Below the pieces are notes generated by a model. It ran no database searches, was not told the origin of the DNA, and saw nothing but the letters and a program-made list of their open reading frames with translations. Positions 8,988 to 15,877 of a stretch of DNA of 64,000 nucleotides are shown here, piece after piece. Positions within the stretch are counted from its first letter, which is position 1; the number at the start of each line of letters is the position of its first letter. Where the stretch lies: positions 96,001-160,000 of the forward strand of contig CAWBWI010000005.1 of the NCBI GenBank assembly GCA_963792585.1, written 5' to 3'. The position numbers and the translations under genes were made by a program. The DNA is from Candidatus Eiseniibacteriota bacterium. GTDB taxonomy: Bacteria > Eisenbacteria > RBG-16-71-46 > CAIMUX01 > VGJL01.

Positions 8988-10931
8988 CTACCTCAAGACT
9001 CGCACGGAGAAAGAGCCCTCCCAGATCGTTCTCGGATCGCTCTCGCCGTCGTCCCGGCGGAGCGCGTCGAGGCGCAGGATCGGCTCGAGAGCGGCGAGGC
9101 CCTCCCATCGCAGGTCGGCGGAGACGCCGCGGGTGGTGAGATCGGGCACGGCGCCCGGGCGATCCACCGTGGAGAAGATCCCGTGCGCTCCCGCGACGAG
9201 GTCCCGCATCGGACGCGCGGAGAGCGAAACGCTCGCGAGCCGGTCACGAATGCGCCCCTCCGCCCAGGTGATCGCCTCGACCTCGCGAACCGCGCGATAG
9301 AAGAACGTCAATCCGCAGCGCTCCCGCGTGCCGCCCGCGCGCTCCAGCCTTCGCACGCCGGCCCAGAAGCGCCACCCTTCCCGGTTCTCTTCATAGGTCA
9401 GGGCCCCGTAGGTGGGCGCGAAGTGGTTCTCCGTGCGCAGGCGGTGCGCTTCCCCCCAGAAAACTTCCCGGCCCAGCGGCTCCTCGCAGAGCAGTCCTGC
9501 GCGGTAACCGATGGCGTCTCGGGCCGGTTGCTTCCGGCTCGCGCGATCGCGGCGCCAATCGACGTACTCCGCATCTGCGGTGAGCCCCCTCCAAGGTCCC
9601 GCGCGGCCGAGCAGAAACCACCCCCGCTCGTCCGTTGGGGCCGGACGGACGTAGCCGCCCTCCCCGATGCTCCTTTGATCGTCGCCGATCGTGAGGTATC
9701 CCGCACGCAGGCCGAGCGGGGTCGGGAGTTCGAAGCGCGGATCGAGCGCGCCGGGGGCGCCGAGGTCGATCGATACGCCGCCCAGGGTCCGCCGGAATCG
9801 GGCCTTCTGCGTCTCGCCCGGTCCCGCGGTCGTCAGGATCCTCCTCTCCCAATGCGGGACCGCCACGAAGCCGCGCAGGCGAGCGAATCGGCGGGACCAA
9901 GCGGCGGTCGCCCCCTCGAACGTGTAGGCTGGGCCGAGGACTTCGAGGCTGTACTGCTGCAATCCGGCTCCACCGCCGCCGCCACACCCGCATCCGGACG
10001 CGCCCCCGAGCGGGGGCGCATCGTCGGCGTCCCACCGCTGCAGAAGCAGCGGAGAGAGGCGCAGAGGATAGGCGCCCAGGATCCCGGAGAAGCGTCCGAT
10101 GCGCACGTTCAGGCTCGCCGTGCCGTGCGGGCTCGCAAGTTGCTCGGCCCCCTCCGTCAGGACCGCATCCGTCTCATTGCTGACCCGGAGCCAGGGAACG
10201 AATTCGATGCCGCGGGCAAGGGGCCAGGTCATGCGCAGGTCGAAACGGGTCAGCAGGGCTGCGCCGTTTTCGAGCGTCTCGCCGTTGAGACCGATCTCCC
10301 CCGCCCGCGCGCCTTCCGTGCTGAGGAATCGAATCCGGCCATCGATCGAGAGATCCGGCCATGCAGGGATCGCCGACGACGACGGTCCGGCCGAAGCGAT
10401 CGCGGCGGGACGGCCGAGCGCGTCGATCGCCGCGGGCATGACCGGCTCGATCAGATTCGGGATCTGATCGTCGAAGAGGGACCGGATCTTCCCCGCGCGA
10501 TCGATGACGAAGACGCCGAGGTGGCGAATCCCGAGATCATAGTCGGCGGCCGTGCCGGCCGTCGCGTCCCACAGATGCGGCACGGGAACCTCTCGGTCCC
10601 AGAGCAGATCCTTCAGCGCCTGCGGATCGTCGGGGCCGAACAGAATCCCCACGACCTGTCCACCGCGGGGCGCGAGCGAGTCGGCCAGCTCGTTCATCCC
10701 GAGCGCGACCTGCGTGCAGCGCGGGCAGCCGCGATTCCAGATCACGAGGACGGTCGCGTCGCTCTGCGCGTAGATCGCCGACGAGGCGGCGGAGCCGTCG
10801 CCCTGCAGCCACGGCAGGTCGAAGGCGGGCGCCGGATCCCCGGGCGCGAGCGCGAACGCAGAACCGGCGGTTATACACAGAATGAGAATGATCAAGAAGG
10901 GCTGCCTCAAGGGAAATGCTGCGTGGCTCAC
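8988..10931 (-). CDS. Secreted TlpA/AhpC-like redoxin (CxxC) fused to a probable outer-membrane beta-barrel domain
   Basis: Signal peptide; PGDPAPAFDL...WNRGCPRC...FVIDRAGKIR redoxin fold; C-terminal region with alternating amphipathic strands. GTG at 10931 after GGAGGTG. Confidence 0.65.
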   Translation of the reverse strand: MSHAAFPLRQPFLIILILCITAGSAFALAPGDPAPAFDLPWLQGDGSAASSAIYAQSDATVLVIWNRGCPRCTQVALGMNELADSLAPRGGQVVGILFGPDDPQALKDLLWDREVPVPHLWDATAGTAADYDLGIRHLGVFVIDRAGKIRSLFDDQIPNLIEPVMPAAIDALGRPAAIASAGPSSSAIPAWPDLSIDGRIRFLSTEGARAGEIGLNGETLENGAALLTRFDLRMTWPLARGIEFVPWLRVSNETDAVLTEGAEQLASPHGTASLNVRIGRFSGILGAYPLRLSPLLLQRWDADDAPPLGGASGCGCGGGGGAGLQQYSLEVLGPAYTFEGATAAWSRRFARLRGFVAVPHWERRILTTAGPGETQKARFRRTLGGVSIDLGAPGALDPRFELPTPLGLRAGYLTIGDDQRSIGEGGYVRPAPTDERGWFLLGRAGPWRGLTADAEYVDWRRDRASRKQPARDAIGYRAGLLCEEPLGREVFWGEAHRLRTENHFAPTYGALTYEENREGWRFWAGVRRLERAGGTRERCGLTFFYRAVREVEAITWAEGRIRDRLASVSLSARPMRDLVAGAHGIFSTVDRPGAVPDLTTRGVSADLRWEGLAALEPILRLDALRRDDGESDPRTIWEGSFSVRVLR

Positions 10932-11076
10932 GGTCACCTCCCGCTCCGGAATAGCACTCCGTCGGCGGCGCCGCAAGCGGCCTCCGCGATCGCCGCGGCG
11001 AGCCGTCTTTCTCTGGAGAGAGGCGCCTTGTTGGCTCCGCGGCGTGGTGGTACGATCTTCGCCGGAGGACAGACTT

Positions 11077-11646
11077 ATGAGCCGCTTTCCTTCCTTCCCG
11101 GTTGCGTCCGCCGCCCTCCTTCTCCTCGTCGCCGTCGCACTTGGAACGACCGTCCGCGCGGAGGACATGCGCCTCGCCTCGGATGACGTGTTCACATGGG
11201 GCGATCTCGGCGGCATCACGATTCAGCATGCCAACTGCGAGGGAGCGCTCGATGGTCGTGCGATCGACGGTCTCGACCTGCCCGGAGAGTGGATCCAGTG
11301 GCATCTGACCCTTACCGAGCCGTTCTGCTTCGTCGACTCCCTTCACTCCGCCGGCACGACAGACGTCGTGCGTGAGTTCGTCACCGAGTACATCTCCGAT
11401 CCCTTGTGGGAGACAGCGGGGCAGGACACGGTCTTCACGGCTCCAGGGGCCGGGGTTGGCTGATCGAGCGGAAACTACGACTGGGTCCAGTCGTCCGAGA
11501 TCCATTGCCTTCCCGCCGGAACCTACGTCATCAAGTTGACCATGTTGACATCACTGCGAACGAAGATCGACTGCCTCGATCTTTCGGGTCGCGTGATTGC
11601 GGTGATGCCGACGACCTGGGGAAGGATCCGCTTCCTGTACCGATAG
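11077..11646 (+). CDS. Secreted CBM6/35-like beta-sandwich protein with in-frame TGA at codon 129 (candidate selenocysteine) and TTWG C-terminal tail; 189 aa with readthrough
   Basis: GGAGG RBS, ATG 11077, signal peptide. After TGA 11461-11463 the frame stays open for 60 codons: SSGNYDWVQSSEIHCLPAGTYVIKLTMLTSLRTKIDCLDLSGRVIAVMPTTWGRIRFLYR*. A SECIS-like hairpin follows the TGA. Confidence 0.75.
11462..11502 (+). promoter_or_regulatory. Candidate bacterial SECIS element
   Basis: Perfect upper stem ACGACTG (11477-11483) / CAGTCGT (11488-11494) with a GGTC loop that begins after a 20-nt spacer from the UGA. A lower stem can form from CGG/CCG and GATC/GATC. Confidence 0.65.
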
Positions 11647-11649
11647 CGC

Positions 11650-13398
11650 CTATTCGAAGACCAGGTAGCCGAACTGCTTGGGCTCGAAGCCGATCGGGTA
11701 CTGCCAATCGGCCGAGCTTTGCTTCGAGATTTCCTTGCGCCGGAAATTGACCCGCCAGCTCGTCCCGGGCGTCGGCGGCACGAATCCGAGTTCAGCAAAG
11801 GGGATGACCGCTTCGATCGTCCAGCCCTCGGCTTCTCTCCCGGCAATGACGGTATAGGCGCCGTTCCACTTCGGCCCATCCCCCTCGTACTGTTCCGGCC
11901 CCGTGACCGTGAGCTTCTGATCGAAGATCGTCCCGTTGGGGTTCACGTAGATCTGGCAGAACGTCTTCTGCTCCGGATCGCCGCTCAGGAAGTAGCCGAC
12001 ACAGTCATCTCGGGTGACCGCCTGGTCGCGTTCGACGGCTTTGGCCGTCAGGCTGGCCCCGTCCGTTTGCACGCAGCGGGCGGCGAGGTAGAGATTCGCG
12101 GCGTCATATCCGAAGAAGAAGGTCGTCGGTTCGATGACGTCCGTTCCCCCGTCGGGCGAGCAGAAGAACTCGGCCTTGCCAGCGTGGGTCCAAAGATCCT
12201 CCTCGAGCGAACCGTCGATCACGGGCCCCGCGTCGAATCGGACCACCTGCTGGACACGACATGCGGGGAGGGCGGCGTCGAAGTGGAACGTCCGTCCCTC
12301 GCGATATGGGTAGTCGAAGCGGAGATGGGGCAAAGGATAGAACCGCCCGTTTCGAGCGACCTGGAACGGGATCTCCACTCCGTCGCCCGGGGGGAGGTCG
12401 ATCGCTCGTGTGGCCGGGTCGATCGACCACTGGGTCGATCCGTCCCACCTCAGATCGGCGCGCAGCGGCGCGGAGGTTGCGTTCCGGAGTCTGAGCGTTC
12501 CGACTGCCGTCGCGGCGCCCGTCCCTTCCCGAACGAGGAACGGCTCGATCCGCGCGTACTCGCTCTCCACCCTCTCGAAGAACTTCAGGTCGGAAACGCG
12601 CGTGGCGTCCGCGGGGCGCACGGAACCCTTCTTCAGCACGCCCCAGTCGAGTCTTCCGTCGCGCGCCGTACAGAGGAGGTACCCGTAGAAGGCGCCCCGC
12701 TCCTCGTTCTCATCCACGTACCCGCCGCTCGTTCCGACGATGGTGTAGGAAATGCCGTCGTAAACGCTCGTCCCGTAGAGGTGGAAGTGGCCGTTGAAGA
12801 CGGCGTCGACACCGTACTTGCGGAACAAGTCATGGAGGGGATCGGGCTTCTCCTCGGCGAGGGTGGCGTACCAGAACGGTTTGTGGAAGATCGCAATGGT
12901 CAACGCGTCGTTCGCGTGGGTCGCTAGGTCCGCCTCGAGCCAGGTGCGGTGGCCTTCGGCCGCCAGCCAGTCCTCGCTCGTCTCCCAGCGTCCGGTGTCG
13001 AGGATCACGAAGTGGATCCCCTCGCGATCTAAGGCATAGTTCGGCTCGTGCCCGGTGCGCTTTCTCCACTCGGATTCCATCGTGGGGTTGAGGATGTCGT
13101 GATTCCCTGGGGAGACGAAGAGAGGTTCGTGAAGGTCCTTGACGATGCCGTCGAATTCGTCCCACTGGGACTCGAGGGTCGGGACGTCCTCGGTGTATCC
13201 CTCGATGTGATCACCAACGGTGACGATGAAGTCGGGCGCGAGCGCGTCGACCTCCGCGACGATCGCTTCGTAGACGCCGGTTACATGACTGCCGGTCCGA
13301 TCGCCGATGATTGCGAAGCGGACAGCGGCCGCGGAGGCGTGTCCGGCGGCGATACTCAGGAGCAGAGCGATGGACAGCGAGGCGCGCTGCGATTTCAT
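11650..13398 (-). CDS. Secreted calcineurin-like metallophosphoesterase with C-terminal CBM9-like sugar-binding domain
   Basis: GD, GD, GNHD, H and GHFH metallophosphoesterase motifs; C-terminal PVIDGSLEE...YDAANLYLA...DDCV...WTIEAVIPF pattern of CBM9/DOMON-like domains. Confidence 0.8.
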   Translation of the reverse strand: MKSQRASLSIALLLSIAAGHASAAAVRFAIIGDRTGSHVTGVYEAIVAEVDALAPDFIVTVGDHIEGYTEDVPTLESQWDEFDGIVKDLHEPLFVSPGNHDILNPTMESEWRKRTGHEPNYALDREGIHFVILDTGRWETSEDWLAAEGHRTWLEADLATHANDALTIAIFHKPFWYATLAEEKPDPLHDLFRKYGVDAVFNGHFHLYGTSVYDGISYTIVGTSGGYVDENEERGAFYGYLLCTARDGRLDWGVLKKGSVRPADATRVSDLKFFERVESEYARIEPFLVREGTGAATAVGTLRLRNATSAPLRADLRWDGSTQWSIDPATRAIDLPPGDGVEIPFQVARNGRFYPLPHLRFDYPYREGRTFHFDAALPACRVQQVVRFDAGPVIDGSLEEDLWTHAGKAEFFCSPDGGTDVIEPTTFFFGYDAANLYLAARCVQTDGASLTAKAVERDQAVTRDDCVGYFLSGDPEQKTFCQIYVNPNGTIFDQKLTVTGPEQYEGDGPKWNGAYTVIAGREAEGWTIEAVIPFAELGFVPPTPGTSWRVNFRRKEISKQSSADWQYPIGFEPKQFGYLVFE

Positions 13399-13576: not shown

Positions 13577-14714
13577 CTAGCGGAAGTCCGCTTTGATCCG
13601 CCCCCAGGTCGTGCTCTCGGTCGGGAATCCGAAACATGGGTTCACGGGCTCGCAGGTCGAACCGTCCCCCATGTAGGTGCCGTCGTGGTCCGCACAGGCA
13701 TCGGCGGTCAGAGTTTCACAGTGGCCGTCCATGTCGAGACAGCAGGCGCCCGCCGGGGGGCACACCGTGTCAACGCAACTCGTATTGAATCCTTGGAAAA
13801 CTCCGGAGCAGTCCCAATCATGCACCTCAGTGCAGGTGCCGTCGTCCAGGCAGCAGGCGCCCTCGGGGATCGGCCCGCAGGGATTCGGATCGCAAGTGAT
13901 GCCGGGGCCGTAGGGCACGCCCCCGATCCGAACGCACTCCTCCACCTGCAGCATCTGACAAGTCCCGTCCGGGAGGCAGCAAGCTTCCGGCTGCGGGCAG
14001 GGGTTGGGATCGCAGGGCACACCGTCTCCGAGGTAGATACCCTGACACTCGATCCATGGGTGTGTAGATGCAGGATCCGTCCAGGAAGCAGCACGCGCCG
14101 GAGTGCGGTTGGTCGGGAATGCAGTCCATCTCCCCCGGAACGTTCCAGCGCATCGCGGCGAAGTTGAAGCAGAGATCCTCGATCGGCGGGCTGCCGTCGT
14201 CGACGAACTTCGCCTCGTTGGTGCTCGGATAGGTCCGCGTGCCGAAGTAATAGGTGTCGTCATCGTGCCACACGGCGAACCAGTAGAAGGGGAACGCATG
14301 GTCGTAAACCGGAACTCCGTAAGCAACGAGGTTCCCGCAGTCATTCAGCTCCGGCCAGCCCGTGTCGGGCAACTCGAGCAGCTGCGGCCCGCACGCGGAG
14401 TAACCGTCGATATACCCCTGAGTCGGCGGCAGGTTGTGGTGGATTCCAAACTGGAGCGCCGTCACGGCGGGGCTCGAGGAGGCCACGAACGCGGCCATCA
14501 ACCAGACGACCGTAGCCTCGTCCGGCGTCTTGTGGCTCGTGTTGACGAAGTCCTCGCACCGACCGGGCGTCGCGCTCTGGCAGTAATCGGCGGTCGCGGT
14601 GTAGACGATCGAGTCGTCGGTGTGGACCAGCATCATGCCGTTGACGTTGCGGCCGGCCCAGGACGGGCTCGCGATCAGCATCGCCACCGCCAGAAGGAGT
14701 GGCGGCCGTTTCAT
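13577..14714 (-). CDS. Secreted Cys-rich repeat protein, paralog B (probable frameshift near 14060)
   Basis: ATG 14714 MKRPPLLLAVAMLIASPSWA; N-terminal domain homologous to 14723-15877; four (G/E)ACC-containing repeats; ends TTWGRIKADFR. Removing one C near 14060 joins the two ORF-track fragments. Confidence 0.8.
13615..13894. repeat. 280-bp direct repeat, copy 1
   Basis: Matches 14761-15040 (offset 1146) with 4 mismatches by manual comparison. Confidence 0.95.
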
Positions 14715-14722
14715 GGTCCCTC

Positions 14723-15877
14723 CTAACGGAACCGGGCCCGGATCTGGCCCCAGGTCGTCTTCTCGGTCGGGAAACCGAAACATGGGTTCACGGGCTCGCA
14801 GGTCGAACCGTCCCCCATGTAGGTGCCGTCGTGGTCCGCGCAGGCATCGGCGGTCAGAGTTTCACAGTGGCCGTCCATGTCGAGACAGCAGGCGCCCGCC
14901 GGGGGGCACACCGTGTCAACGCAACTCGTATTGAATCCTTGGAAAACTCCGGAGCAGTCCCAATCATGCACCTCAATGCAGGTGCCGTCGTCCAGGCAGC
15001 AGGCGCCCTCGGGGGTCGGCCCGCAGGGATTCGGATCGCAGGGCATATCCGGAAGGAACACGCCGCCGAGCGCGTCGCAATCCTCCGCAAAGAGGATCTG
15101 GCAGTTCCCGTCGGGGAAGCAGCACGCACCCGGTTGCGGGCAGGGATTCGGATCGCACGGCGTCAACTCGCCATACCAGACGCCCCCCATCGCTTCGCAA
15201 TCAACCGGGAACGCGACTTCCAGGCAACTCCCGCCGGGGAGACAACATGCGCCGGGAGGATGGTCTCCGGGACAGGCATTCTCTCCCGGCACTCCCCACC
15301 GCACCGTCCCGAAGTTGTAGCAGAAGTCCTCGAGGGGCGGGCCCCCGTCATCCACGAACTTCGCCTCGTTCGTGCTCGGGTAGGTCCGCGTGCCGAAGAA
15401 GGTGGACTCATCCCCGTGGTAGACGGCGAACCAGTAGAATTTGAACAGGTGTTCGTAGACGGCCGCGCTATAGGCCACGAGATTGCCGCAGTCGCTCGGG
15501 TCGGGCCAGCCCGAGTCGGGCAGCTCGATCGAGCTCGGACCGCACGCTCCCCACACGACGAAGTAGCCCTCATTCGTCGGGAGATTGTGCCGGATTCCGA
15601 ACTGGAGCGCCGTGACGCCCGGGCTAGACTCCGGGGGAAAAGCCGCCACCAGCCAGAGGATCGTCGGTTCATCGATCGTGTCGTTGCTCTGTGTCTCGAG
15701 TTCCAGACAGGATCCCGGGAGAGCGAACTCGGGATCGGTGCAGAAGTTGTACGTATCGGTGTAATCGAGTTGTCCGGTGTAGACGTGCACGACCATCGAC
15801 CCATTGGCGTTTCGGCCGGCGTTCGCGGCGCCGTTCACCGCAACAAGCGCCACCAACAACAATAGCAGATATCGCAT
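14723..15877 (-). CDS. Secreted Cys-rich repeat protein, paralog A
   Basis: Signal peptide, N-terminal globular domain, four GACC repeats with six Cys each; ends TTWGQIRARFR. Confidence 0.85.
   Translation of the reverse strand: MRYLLLLLVALVAVNGAANAGRNANGSMVVHVYTGQLDYTDTYNFCTDPEFALPGSCLELETQSNDTIDEPTILWLVAAFPPESSPGVTALQFGIRHNLPTNEGYFVVWGACGPSSIELPDSGWPDPSDCGNLVAYSAAVYEHLFKFYWFAVYHGDESTFFGTRTYPSTNEAKFVDDGGPPLEDFCYNFGTVRWGVPGENACPGDHPPGACCLPGGSCLEVAFPVDCEAMGGVWYGELTPCDPNPCPQPGACCFPDGNCQILFAEDCDALGGVFLPDMPCDPNPCGPTPEGACCLDDGTCIEVHDWDCSGVFQGFNTSCVDTVCPPAGACCLDMDGHCETLTADACADHDGTYMGDGSTCEPVNPCFGFPTEKTTWGQIRARFR
14761..15040. repeat. 280-bp direct repeat, copy 2
   Basis: Matches 13615-13894. Confidence 0.95.

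Follow-up and report, generated by a model that had tools for sequence, protein, structure and literature searches.

An apparently undescribed selenoprotein family predicted to use a carbohydrate-binding-module scaffold

The window (the whole stretch of 64,000 nucleotides analysed here) contains a forward-strand reading frame that ends ...APGAGVG at a TGA (11461-11463), after which 60 sense codons follow in the same frame to TAG 11644-11646. The question raised by this locus is whether the TGA closes a short protein or encodes selenocysteine (Sec) in an exported protein of 189 residues, as the initial annotation had proposed. On re-reading, its coordinates for the TGA, the extension and the second stop all matched, as did those of a perfect 7-bp hairpin with its loop 20 nt past the UGA. 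The features of the locus are listed with the evidence for each.

8988..10931, minus strand: signal peptide, DsbE/TlpA-like redoxin and probable outer-membrane beta-barrel (Pfam, PDB, periodicity; GTG start assigned by eye)
11064..11068, plus strand: Shine-Dalgarno GGAGG, 8 nt 5' of ATG 11077 (sequence)
11077..11646, plus strand: putative selenoprotein gene, 189 aa, with UGA as Sec129 (sequence, frame, homologues)
11077..11160, plus strand: likely Sec-pathway signal peptide, aa 1-28 (translation, by eye)
11161..11586, plus strand: CBM6/CBM35-like beta-jelly-roll domain, aa 29-170 (predicted model)
11236..11238, plus strand: Cys54, likely partner of Sec129 (55/57 scorable domains)
11326..11328, plus strand: Cys84, likely structural disulfide with Cys144 (co-occurrence)
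11461..11463, plus strand: in-frame UGA (Sec129) within G-x-G-x-x-U (column TGA, TGC or Cys in relatives)
11477..11494, plus strand: bacterial SECIS-like hairpin ACGACTG-GGTC-CAGTCGT, which encodes Y-D-W-V-Q-S (sequence, folding, conservation, bSECIS criteria)
11506..11508, plus strand: Cys144, likely structural disulfide with Cys84 (co-occurrence)
11569..11571, plus strand: Asp165, likely ligand of a CBM6-type calcium site with the E-A-E motif, here A34-S-D36 (Asp in 57/58)
11608..11643, plus strand: C-terminal PTTWGRIRFLYR tail, likely a sorting or surface-attachment signal (genome-wide pattern; modelled as a short helix with low pLDDT)

The in-frame UGA and its conservation

GC3 is 0.78 on either side of the TGA, and the read-through frame stops 3 nt short of the stop of the convergent gene at 11650-13398. 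The extension had been said to have no start of its own, and indeed none of the six in-frame ATG, GTG or TTG codons past the TGA has a GGAGG-like ribosome-binding site in the 15 nt upstream. In the hairpin, ACGACTG (11477-11483) pairs with CAGTCGT (11488-11494) around the loop GGTC (11484-11487). The bSECIS model sets a loop of 3-9 nt, a stem of 4-16 bp, a G in loop positions 1-2, a spacing of 16-37 nt and an MFE of -7.5 or lower (PMC13188914, section 5); checked by hand, the window hairpin lies within all of these limits, with a 4-nt GGUC loop, 7 bp, 20 nt and -8.8 (stem) and -15.1 (region) kcal/mol. In RNA folding, its stability was unremarkable against shuffles (z of 0.07 over 76 nt and -1.47 over 45 nt). 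A loose hairpin rule is passed by 4122 of the 121480 TGA triplets of the genome (3.4%) and a strict rule by 582 (0.5%), and at least 60 open codons follow the TGA stop in 39% of 1002 TGA-ending genes of this same GC-rich genome. Against chance, the open extension and the hairpin of a single locus are weak evidence; the case for recoding is made not by these but by conservation across homologues, since this far exceeds chance.

A scan of the locus for promoters and terminators found nothing. The convergent gene (11650-13398, minus strand) encodes a metallophosphoesterase (Pfam Metallophos, E 5e-11) that is exported and whose C-terminal domains lack annotation; this gene is absent from the conserved neighbours (clusters common to at least three family loci).

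The column of the UGA holds TGA or Cys in all 58 non-redundant domains that span it (40 TGA, 18 Cys), never Trp or any other residue, and the sequence is conserved on both sides. The genome also encodes a paralogue, 42% identical, that shares the TGA and the hairpin. Within a set of 61 relatives, 14 genomes contributed 18 matches; 17 of these have a single TGA and one has none. When a profile was run against 206 genomes, 25 matches were strong (E <= 1.1e-27), and they come from 20 genomes that represent 8 families. A single TGA interrupts 23 of the 25, and the two without a stop carry TGC at the Sec column. Left out of the 25 are 19 weak C-terminal matches, mostly to the tail only, and one match to the N-terminal half only. 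A DNA pattern containing the hairpin returned 22 + 34 stretches, with 14 chance matches dropped; of the 22 loci from named genomes, 17 are family members, under the titles Candidatus Eisenbacteria (7), uncultured bacterium (8) and Terriglobales (2). A search of genome and metagenome contigs with the single protein returned no relatives. The G-V-G-U of the initial annotation is not a conserved motif, the homologues sharing G-x-G-x-x-U instead.

In a 50%-identity protein library there were 135 matches, of which 108 end just before the Sec column, 16 span it and 11 are fragments or unrelated. The script had classed 110 as ending there, and two false inclusions (P0123, P0104) were removed by eye; the stop codon of library proteins is not visible from protein sequence. 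All 16 spanning proteins have Cys at the column, and ten Cys forms that were looked up had no name or were called 'hypothetical protein'. Databases appear to hold the family truncated, 108 of the 135 representatives ending at the position of the UGA and so losing five predicted strands and the putative sorting tail. Two Ig-stalk proteins of the library (P0094, P0101) end ...GSGCC right before the Sec column, and would have a C-C-U motif if their stop is TGA.

In a tree of 56 rows, read without a direction of change, Cys forms are sister to Sec forms at several supported nodes and there is a separate, mostly-Cys group. Cys forms could have marked genomes that lost the Sec trait, but this was rejected: G146, which has only a Cys form, carries selB, selD and tRNA-Sec, and loss is also contradicted by G019, where Cys and Sec copies stand in tandem. 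Natural Cys forms exist, which opens the function to tests on ordinary recombinant protein. Besides the adjacent Cys and Sec pair in G019, the family forms tandem arrays of two or three copies (L136, L137 and L150; L062; L063). It also has a short form (L112:5169-5585 in G062; P0040 in the library) in which the N-terminal half is fused to the TWG tail, with neither the Sec loop nor the C-terminal strands.

Loci found by the hairpin-containing DNA pattern are biased for the hairpin and were excluded when its conservation was counted. Of the 22 non-redundant TGA genes found by profile, without use of the hairpin, 21 contain GACTG-4nt-CAGTC. Every one of the 21 uses the synonymous codons that allow pairing (GAC, CAG, TCN), whose joint genome frequency is 0.38 per gene, these kin not being independent. 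The peptide DWxQS occurs in 39 of 40 TGA forms (18 of which were found via the hairpin pattern) and in none of the 18 Cys forms. Since the pairing codons are always chosen and DWxQS is confined to TGA forms, the constraint acts on the RNA and tracks the UGA. RNA covariation was marginal: 91% of cells are paired (7/500 shuffles), the score was matched by 23/500 shuffles and two pairs have two-sided changes. One Cys form (L043) still folds a 5-bp hairpin, and in a divergent TGA gene (L044) the conserved hairpin sequence is missing, with an alternative stem whose stability does not exceed that of shuffles (z -0.30).

The genome (5.4 Mb, 84% complete) contains selA (E 6.8e-146), selB (E 2e-95), selD and a tRNA-Sec with TCA anticodon, all above curated cut-offs, and its selD has an in-frame TGA of its own with a G-loop hairpin at 20 nt. 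Since selA is so widespread in the phylum (182 of 206 genomes, a tally that takes in one unpublished genome, G079, which bears on no other result), the machinery is a necessary background and does not discriminate. selA is present in 17 of the 19 genomes that carry a TGA copy, and the other two (75% and 54% complete) carry tRNA-Sec plus selB or selD.

Since an in-frame UGA and a conserved hairpin occur together with the full Sec machinery, the UGA at 11461-11463 is very likely read as Sec. The Sec reading of the initial annotation is thus supported, with the machinery complete, only TGA or Cys in the column of homologues, and flanks and hairpin conserved, and we hold it with high confidence. 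SelB and Sec-tRNA would bind the GGUC-loop hairpin and insert Sec129, a step with strong comparative support. The contrary reading is that the UGA is a true stop, an assembly error or a codon for Trp or Cys, with the frame past it a pseudogene remnant or a separate peptide. This would suit the commonness of 60-codon open frames past TGA in this genome (39%), a hairpin that taken alone is not significant and the natural short form in G062, whose N-terminal half joins directly to the tail, but it is very improbable, given that the same TGA recurs in the paralogue of the same genome and, at identities of 23-50%, across 8 families of the phylum, that Cys is the sole replacement ever seen at the column, that a stop there would remove five strands of the modelled fold plus the tail, and that contigs of two RNA-library runs contain another relative with its TGA in register. 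Such RNA-library cover is no sign of transcription, one such contig spanning both divergent genes. Genetic code 4 does not apply, since the tRNA-Trp is of the CCA type and TGA closes most genes.

Predicted fold, export and comparison with known families

The protein is predicted to have a CBM6/35-type fold. A beta-sandwich of this kind had been suspected from the translation, and structure prediction gave a jelly roll whose top matches are CBM6/35/36 or similar jelly rolls. The model is an all-beta sandwich plus short helices, with no UxxC or CxxU, which agrees with the earlier statement that there is no thioredoxin fold. The family protein has no Pfam CBM match at E <= 0.1-1 and only weak PDB profile matches. 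Set against CBM6/CBM35 (PF03422 and kin; 2cdo, 1gmm, 2w47), the family has 10-18% identity and no Pfam match, appears to have lost the first cleft A aromatic and to carry a Sec/Cys insertion in the cleft A loop, and is joined to no catalytic domain among the matches inspected.

The four cysteines that had been counted are at 54, 84, 144 and 166; the count stands, and their roles can be refined: C54 is the likely partner of Sec, C84 and C144 likely form a structural pair, and C166 is variable. Among 57 scorable domains, 55 have the Cys54 residue and no UxC, and two have no Cys there but do have UxC; to judge from the tree, these two sequences may not be independent. Eight of the truncated library proteins have Asp in the Cys54 column. 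Cys84 and Cys144 are both present in 35 of 58 domains, both absent in 21, discordant in one and unscorable in one. The E-x-E...D positions are kept across the family (E 54/58, E 53/58, D 57/58), the two Glu being replaced by Ala and Asp in the window copy. From CBM6 structures, we presume that Asp165 and the E-A-E motif bind calcium. As covariation and fold suggest, the jelly roll would be held by the C84-C144 disulfide and this calcium site.

In weak alignments, the first of the CBM6 cleft A aromatics (Tyr34/Trp92 type) aligns to Gly65/Leu66 and the second possibly to Tyr134, a column with Y, F or W in 54/58. In a profile alignment (E 0.04), the Cys/Sec column falls in five inserted residues that follow ATGG and precede the F of CtGH5-CBM6. 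By our own count, with an offset of 33, this F and the upstream W map to Phe478 and Trp424, which PMC10284105 gives as cleft A aromatics. Sec129 would then lie in an inserted loop at the cleft A position, with the first stacking aromatic replaced by an invariant Gly.

The earlier statement that the protein is unlike known selenoprotein families was borne out by models, since the domain has no Pfam or NCBIfam (June 2026) match. When the window protein and 16 family members were scanned, 0 families were matched, the Cys forms matching tail domains or noise only; as a positive control, another TGA gene of the genome matched Omp28_seleno (E 1.3e-14). A literature search found no description of the family; Deng et al. 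2026 reportedly screened 44,000 MAGs, and the family might be among their candidates. Table 1 of PMC13188914 has 119 selenoprotein families, none of which is named there as a CBM or jelly roll, and section 7 of that paper describes most known bacterial selenoproteins as thioredoxin-like or metalloenzyme subunits. The searched part of the supplement of PMC13326102 contains neither 'Eisenbacteria' nor 'carbohydrate' (its family table S2 possibly lying outside that part). We propose that this is an apparently undescribed selenoprotein family on a carbohydrate-binding-module scaffold, set apart from catalogued families by models and names. Sec would here be carried by an extracytoplasmic jelly roll of lectin type in bacteria of an uncultured lineage, a binding scaffold apparently having been converted to a redox or metal site through one loop insertion.

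With bacterial selenoproteins that have a SECIS within the coding sequence (SelA/SelB/SelC/SelD), the family shares the in-frame UGA, the small G loop 16-37 nt downstream, Cys homologues and the machinery, but it has neither a thioredoxin fold nor CxxU/UxxC, and its likely partner Cys is 75 residues away. With the Omp28-related selenoprotein (NF045500) and other exported selenoproteins of thioredoxin fold, of which this genome has three genes, it shares export, Sec and a C-terminal sorting region, whereas those proteins are thioredoxin folds with UxxC. HgcB (NF040864) is listed with the motif GVGU (PMC13188914, Table 1). A likeness to HgcB was rejected as coincidental: HgcB is a ferredoxin with which the window copy shares only G-V-G-U, there is no NCBIfam match and GVG is not conserved in the family.

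The signal peptide (aa 1-28) has a hydrophobic core and a V-R-A cleavage site, both read by eye from the translation. At the other end, the tail had been noticed on two other ORFs of the window and is indeed seen at 13577-14344 and 14723-15877 on the minus strand; in the form [ST]WGx[IV][KR]xx[YF]R it closes 111 ORFs of the genome (G000), often in tandem clusters. The window examples that were scanned gave no Pfam or NCBIfam match, and no paper on the tail was found. The TWG tail is likely a lineage-specific sorting signal. The signal peptide would export the protein and the tail would sort it to the cell surface. Some homologues have a FlgD_ig/Por_Secre_tail C-terminus in place of the TWG tail, or the domain ends fn3/Ig stalks, which is consistent with surface display. 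A search for longer fused forms found none, a weak negative since the library matches include such fusions. One Cys-rich TWG-tail paralogue of the window (13577-14783, minus strand) appears split in two frames (13830-14783 and 13577-14344), possibly by a frameshift, and its intact neighbour (14723-15877, minus strand) serves as a reference.

The redoxin-barrel neighbour and possible functions

The redoxin of the divergent neighbour (8988-10931), a conserved gene that the initial annotation had passed over, has WNRGCPRC, with its CxxC at 10716-10727, and matches Pfam AhpC-TSA (E 2.6e-15) and DsbE chains in the PDB. The C-terminal region of ~450 aa has no match in Pfam or the PDB. We count 16 amphipathic alternating segments in it, together with a strand-like end and no long hydrophobic helix, which makes an outer-membrane beta-barrel probable; the region includes a conserved QRWDxxDAPPxGG...CxC/CxxC loop. 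With DsbE/CcmG/ResA/TlpA redoxins and the DsbD relay the neighbour shares a signal peptide followed by a CPxC thioredoxin domain, but it is fused to the probable barrel with a Cys pair of its own, and scores far below the DsbE cut-offs.

Neighbour and Sec gene stand head-to-head in 9 of 20 family genomes and in 5 metagenome loci. The neighbour has a strong match (E<1e-40) in 15 of the 20 family genomes and in one of 186 others, with weak partial matches in 21 more genomes; in five of the family genomes there is no strong match, and in six it is sited elsewhere. Since kin are not independent, this co-occurrence is overstated. It is unlikely that the barrel is a general exporter of TWG-tail proteins, strong matches being found in 16 of 206 genomes and tail-only matches in other genomes too. 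In three genomes where the redoxin-barrel gene lies away from the Sec gene (L106, L107, L108), it is followed by an exported protein of ~250 aa ending EP-x-S/T-hydrophobic-basic, which we take to be PEP-CTERM-like.

The reading that we prefer, at about an even chance, is that Sec129 pairs reversibly with Cys54 as a redox site kept reduced by the neighbouring thioredoxin-barrel protein. Sec129 would attack an oxidised or electrophilic ligand docked in cleft A, and Cys54, or the UxC Cys where there is no Cys54, would resolve the product. The divergent DsbE-like CxxC domain, perhaps via the CxC/CxxC loop of the barrel, could re-reduce the Se-S bond, as synteny and co-occurrence suggest. A further and rather unlikely step would be a two-gene outer-membrane relay, running from the periplasmic thioredoxin domain through the Cys pair of the barrel to a surface selenoenzyme derived from a carbohydrate-binding module, with Sec at the sugar cleft. 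If true, this would act as a DsbD-like electron wire that spans the outer membrane and supplies a Sec catalyst whose scaffold is itself non-redox. The linked thioredoxin-barrel fusion may show the route of reducing power to the cell surface.

It is less probable that the site works at the cell surface as a chelator, Sec129 and Cys54 (or UxC) binding a soft metal or metalloid (Hg, As, Cu, Ag) that is handed to or from the CxC/CxxC loop of the barrel while the thioredoxin domain keeps the ligands reduced. UxC/CxC motifs are present in both the family protein and the barrel loop, the genome also has a MerB-like TGA gene, and several transporter-linked selenoproteins are implicated in Hg/As handling (PMC13188914, section 7). 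However, the site offers two thiol/selenol ligands only, with no conserved His, Met or third Cys nearby, the barrel matches nothing in Pfam or the PDB, and the neighbour clusters common to at least three loci, read by eye, contain no mer, ars or cop genes.

It is doubtful that the domain is still a true glycan-binding module in which the Se-S bond is a structural staple or a redox switch shaping the cleft A loop. The structural matches, all to CBM6/35/36 or similar jelly rolls, would suit this, as would the aromatic kept at Y134 and the occurrence of the domain on fn3/Ig stalks and with FlgD-like tails, as in surface lectins. Against it, the first cleft A aromatic aligns to the invariant Gly or the next Leu, no glycoside hydrolase domain is found in any of the 135 library matches (inspected by length and Pfam), and a plain Cys pair is already used where structure is likely needed. 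To our knowledge, Sec would be unusual in a purely structural bond. We therefore rank the surface redox site first, followed by metal capture, the lectin with a Se-S staple and, as hardly credible, the absence of recoding.

Other TGA genes in the genome

On the minus strand of the same genome, three tandem exported genes (G000:C6:966188-972869, L169) have a TGA in W/T-U-x-Y-C (UxxC) and strong hairpins. One matches Omp28_seleno (E 1.3e-14, below the cut-off) and has a FlgD/T9SS-like tail; the frames of the other two end early or shift, possibly through assembly errors. A MerB-like domain (Pfam E 6.7e-11) is encoded with an in-frame TGA and a GGUC-loop hairpin at G000:C3:1035944-1036276 on the plus strand (L171). 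About 5.4 kb downstream of selD, on the plus strand, lies a gene for an exported barrel-like protein of 340 aa (G000:C6:198322-199341; L170:9323-10342), with G-G-C-G-U right past its signal peptide, a 7-bp hairpin and no Pfam match. From its sequence this is a possible second undescribed selenoprotein, and its CxU recalls the CxC loop of the redoxin-barrel neighbour in the window.
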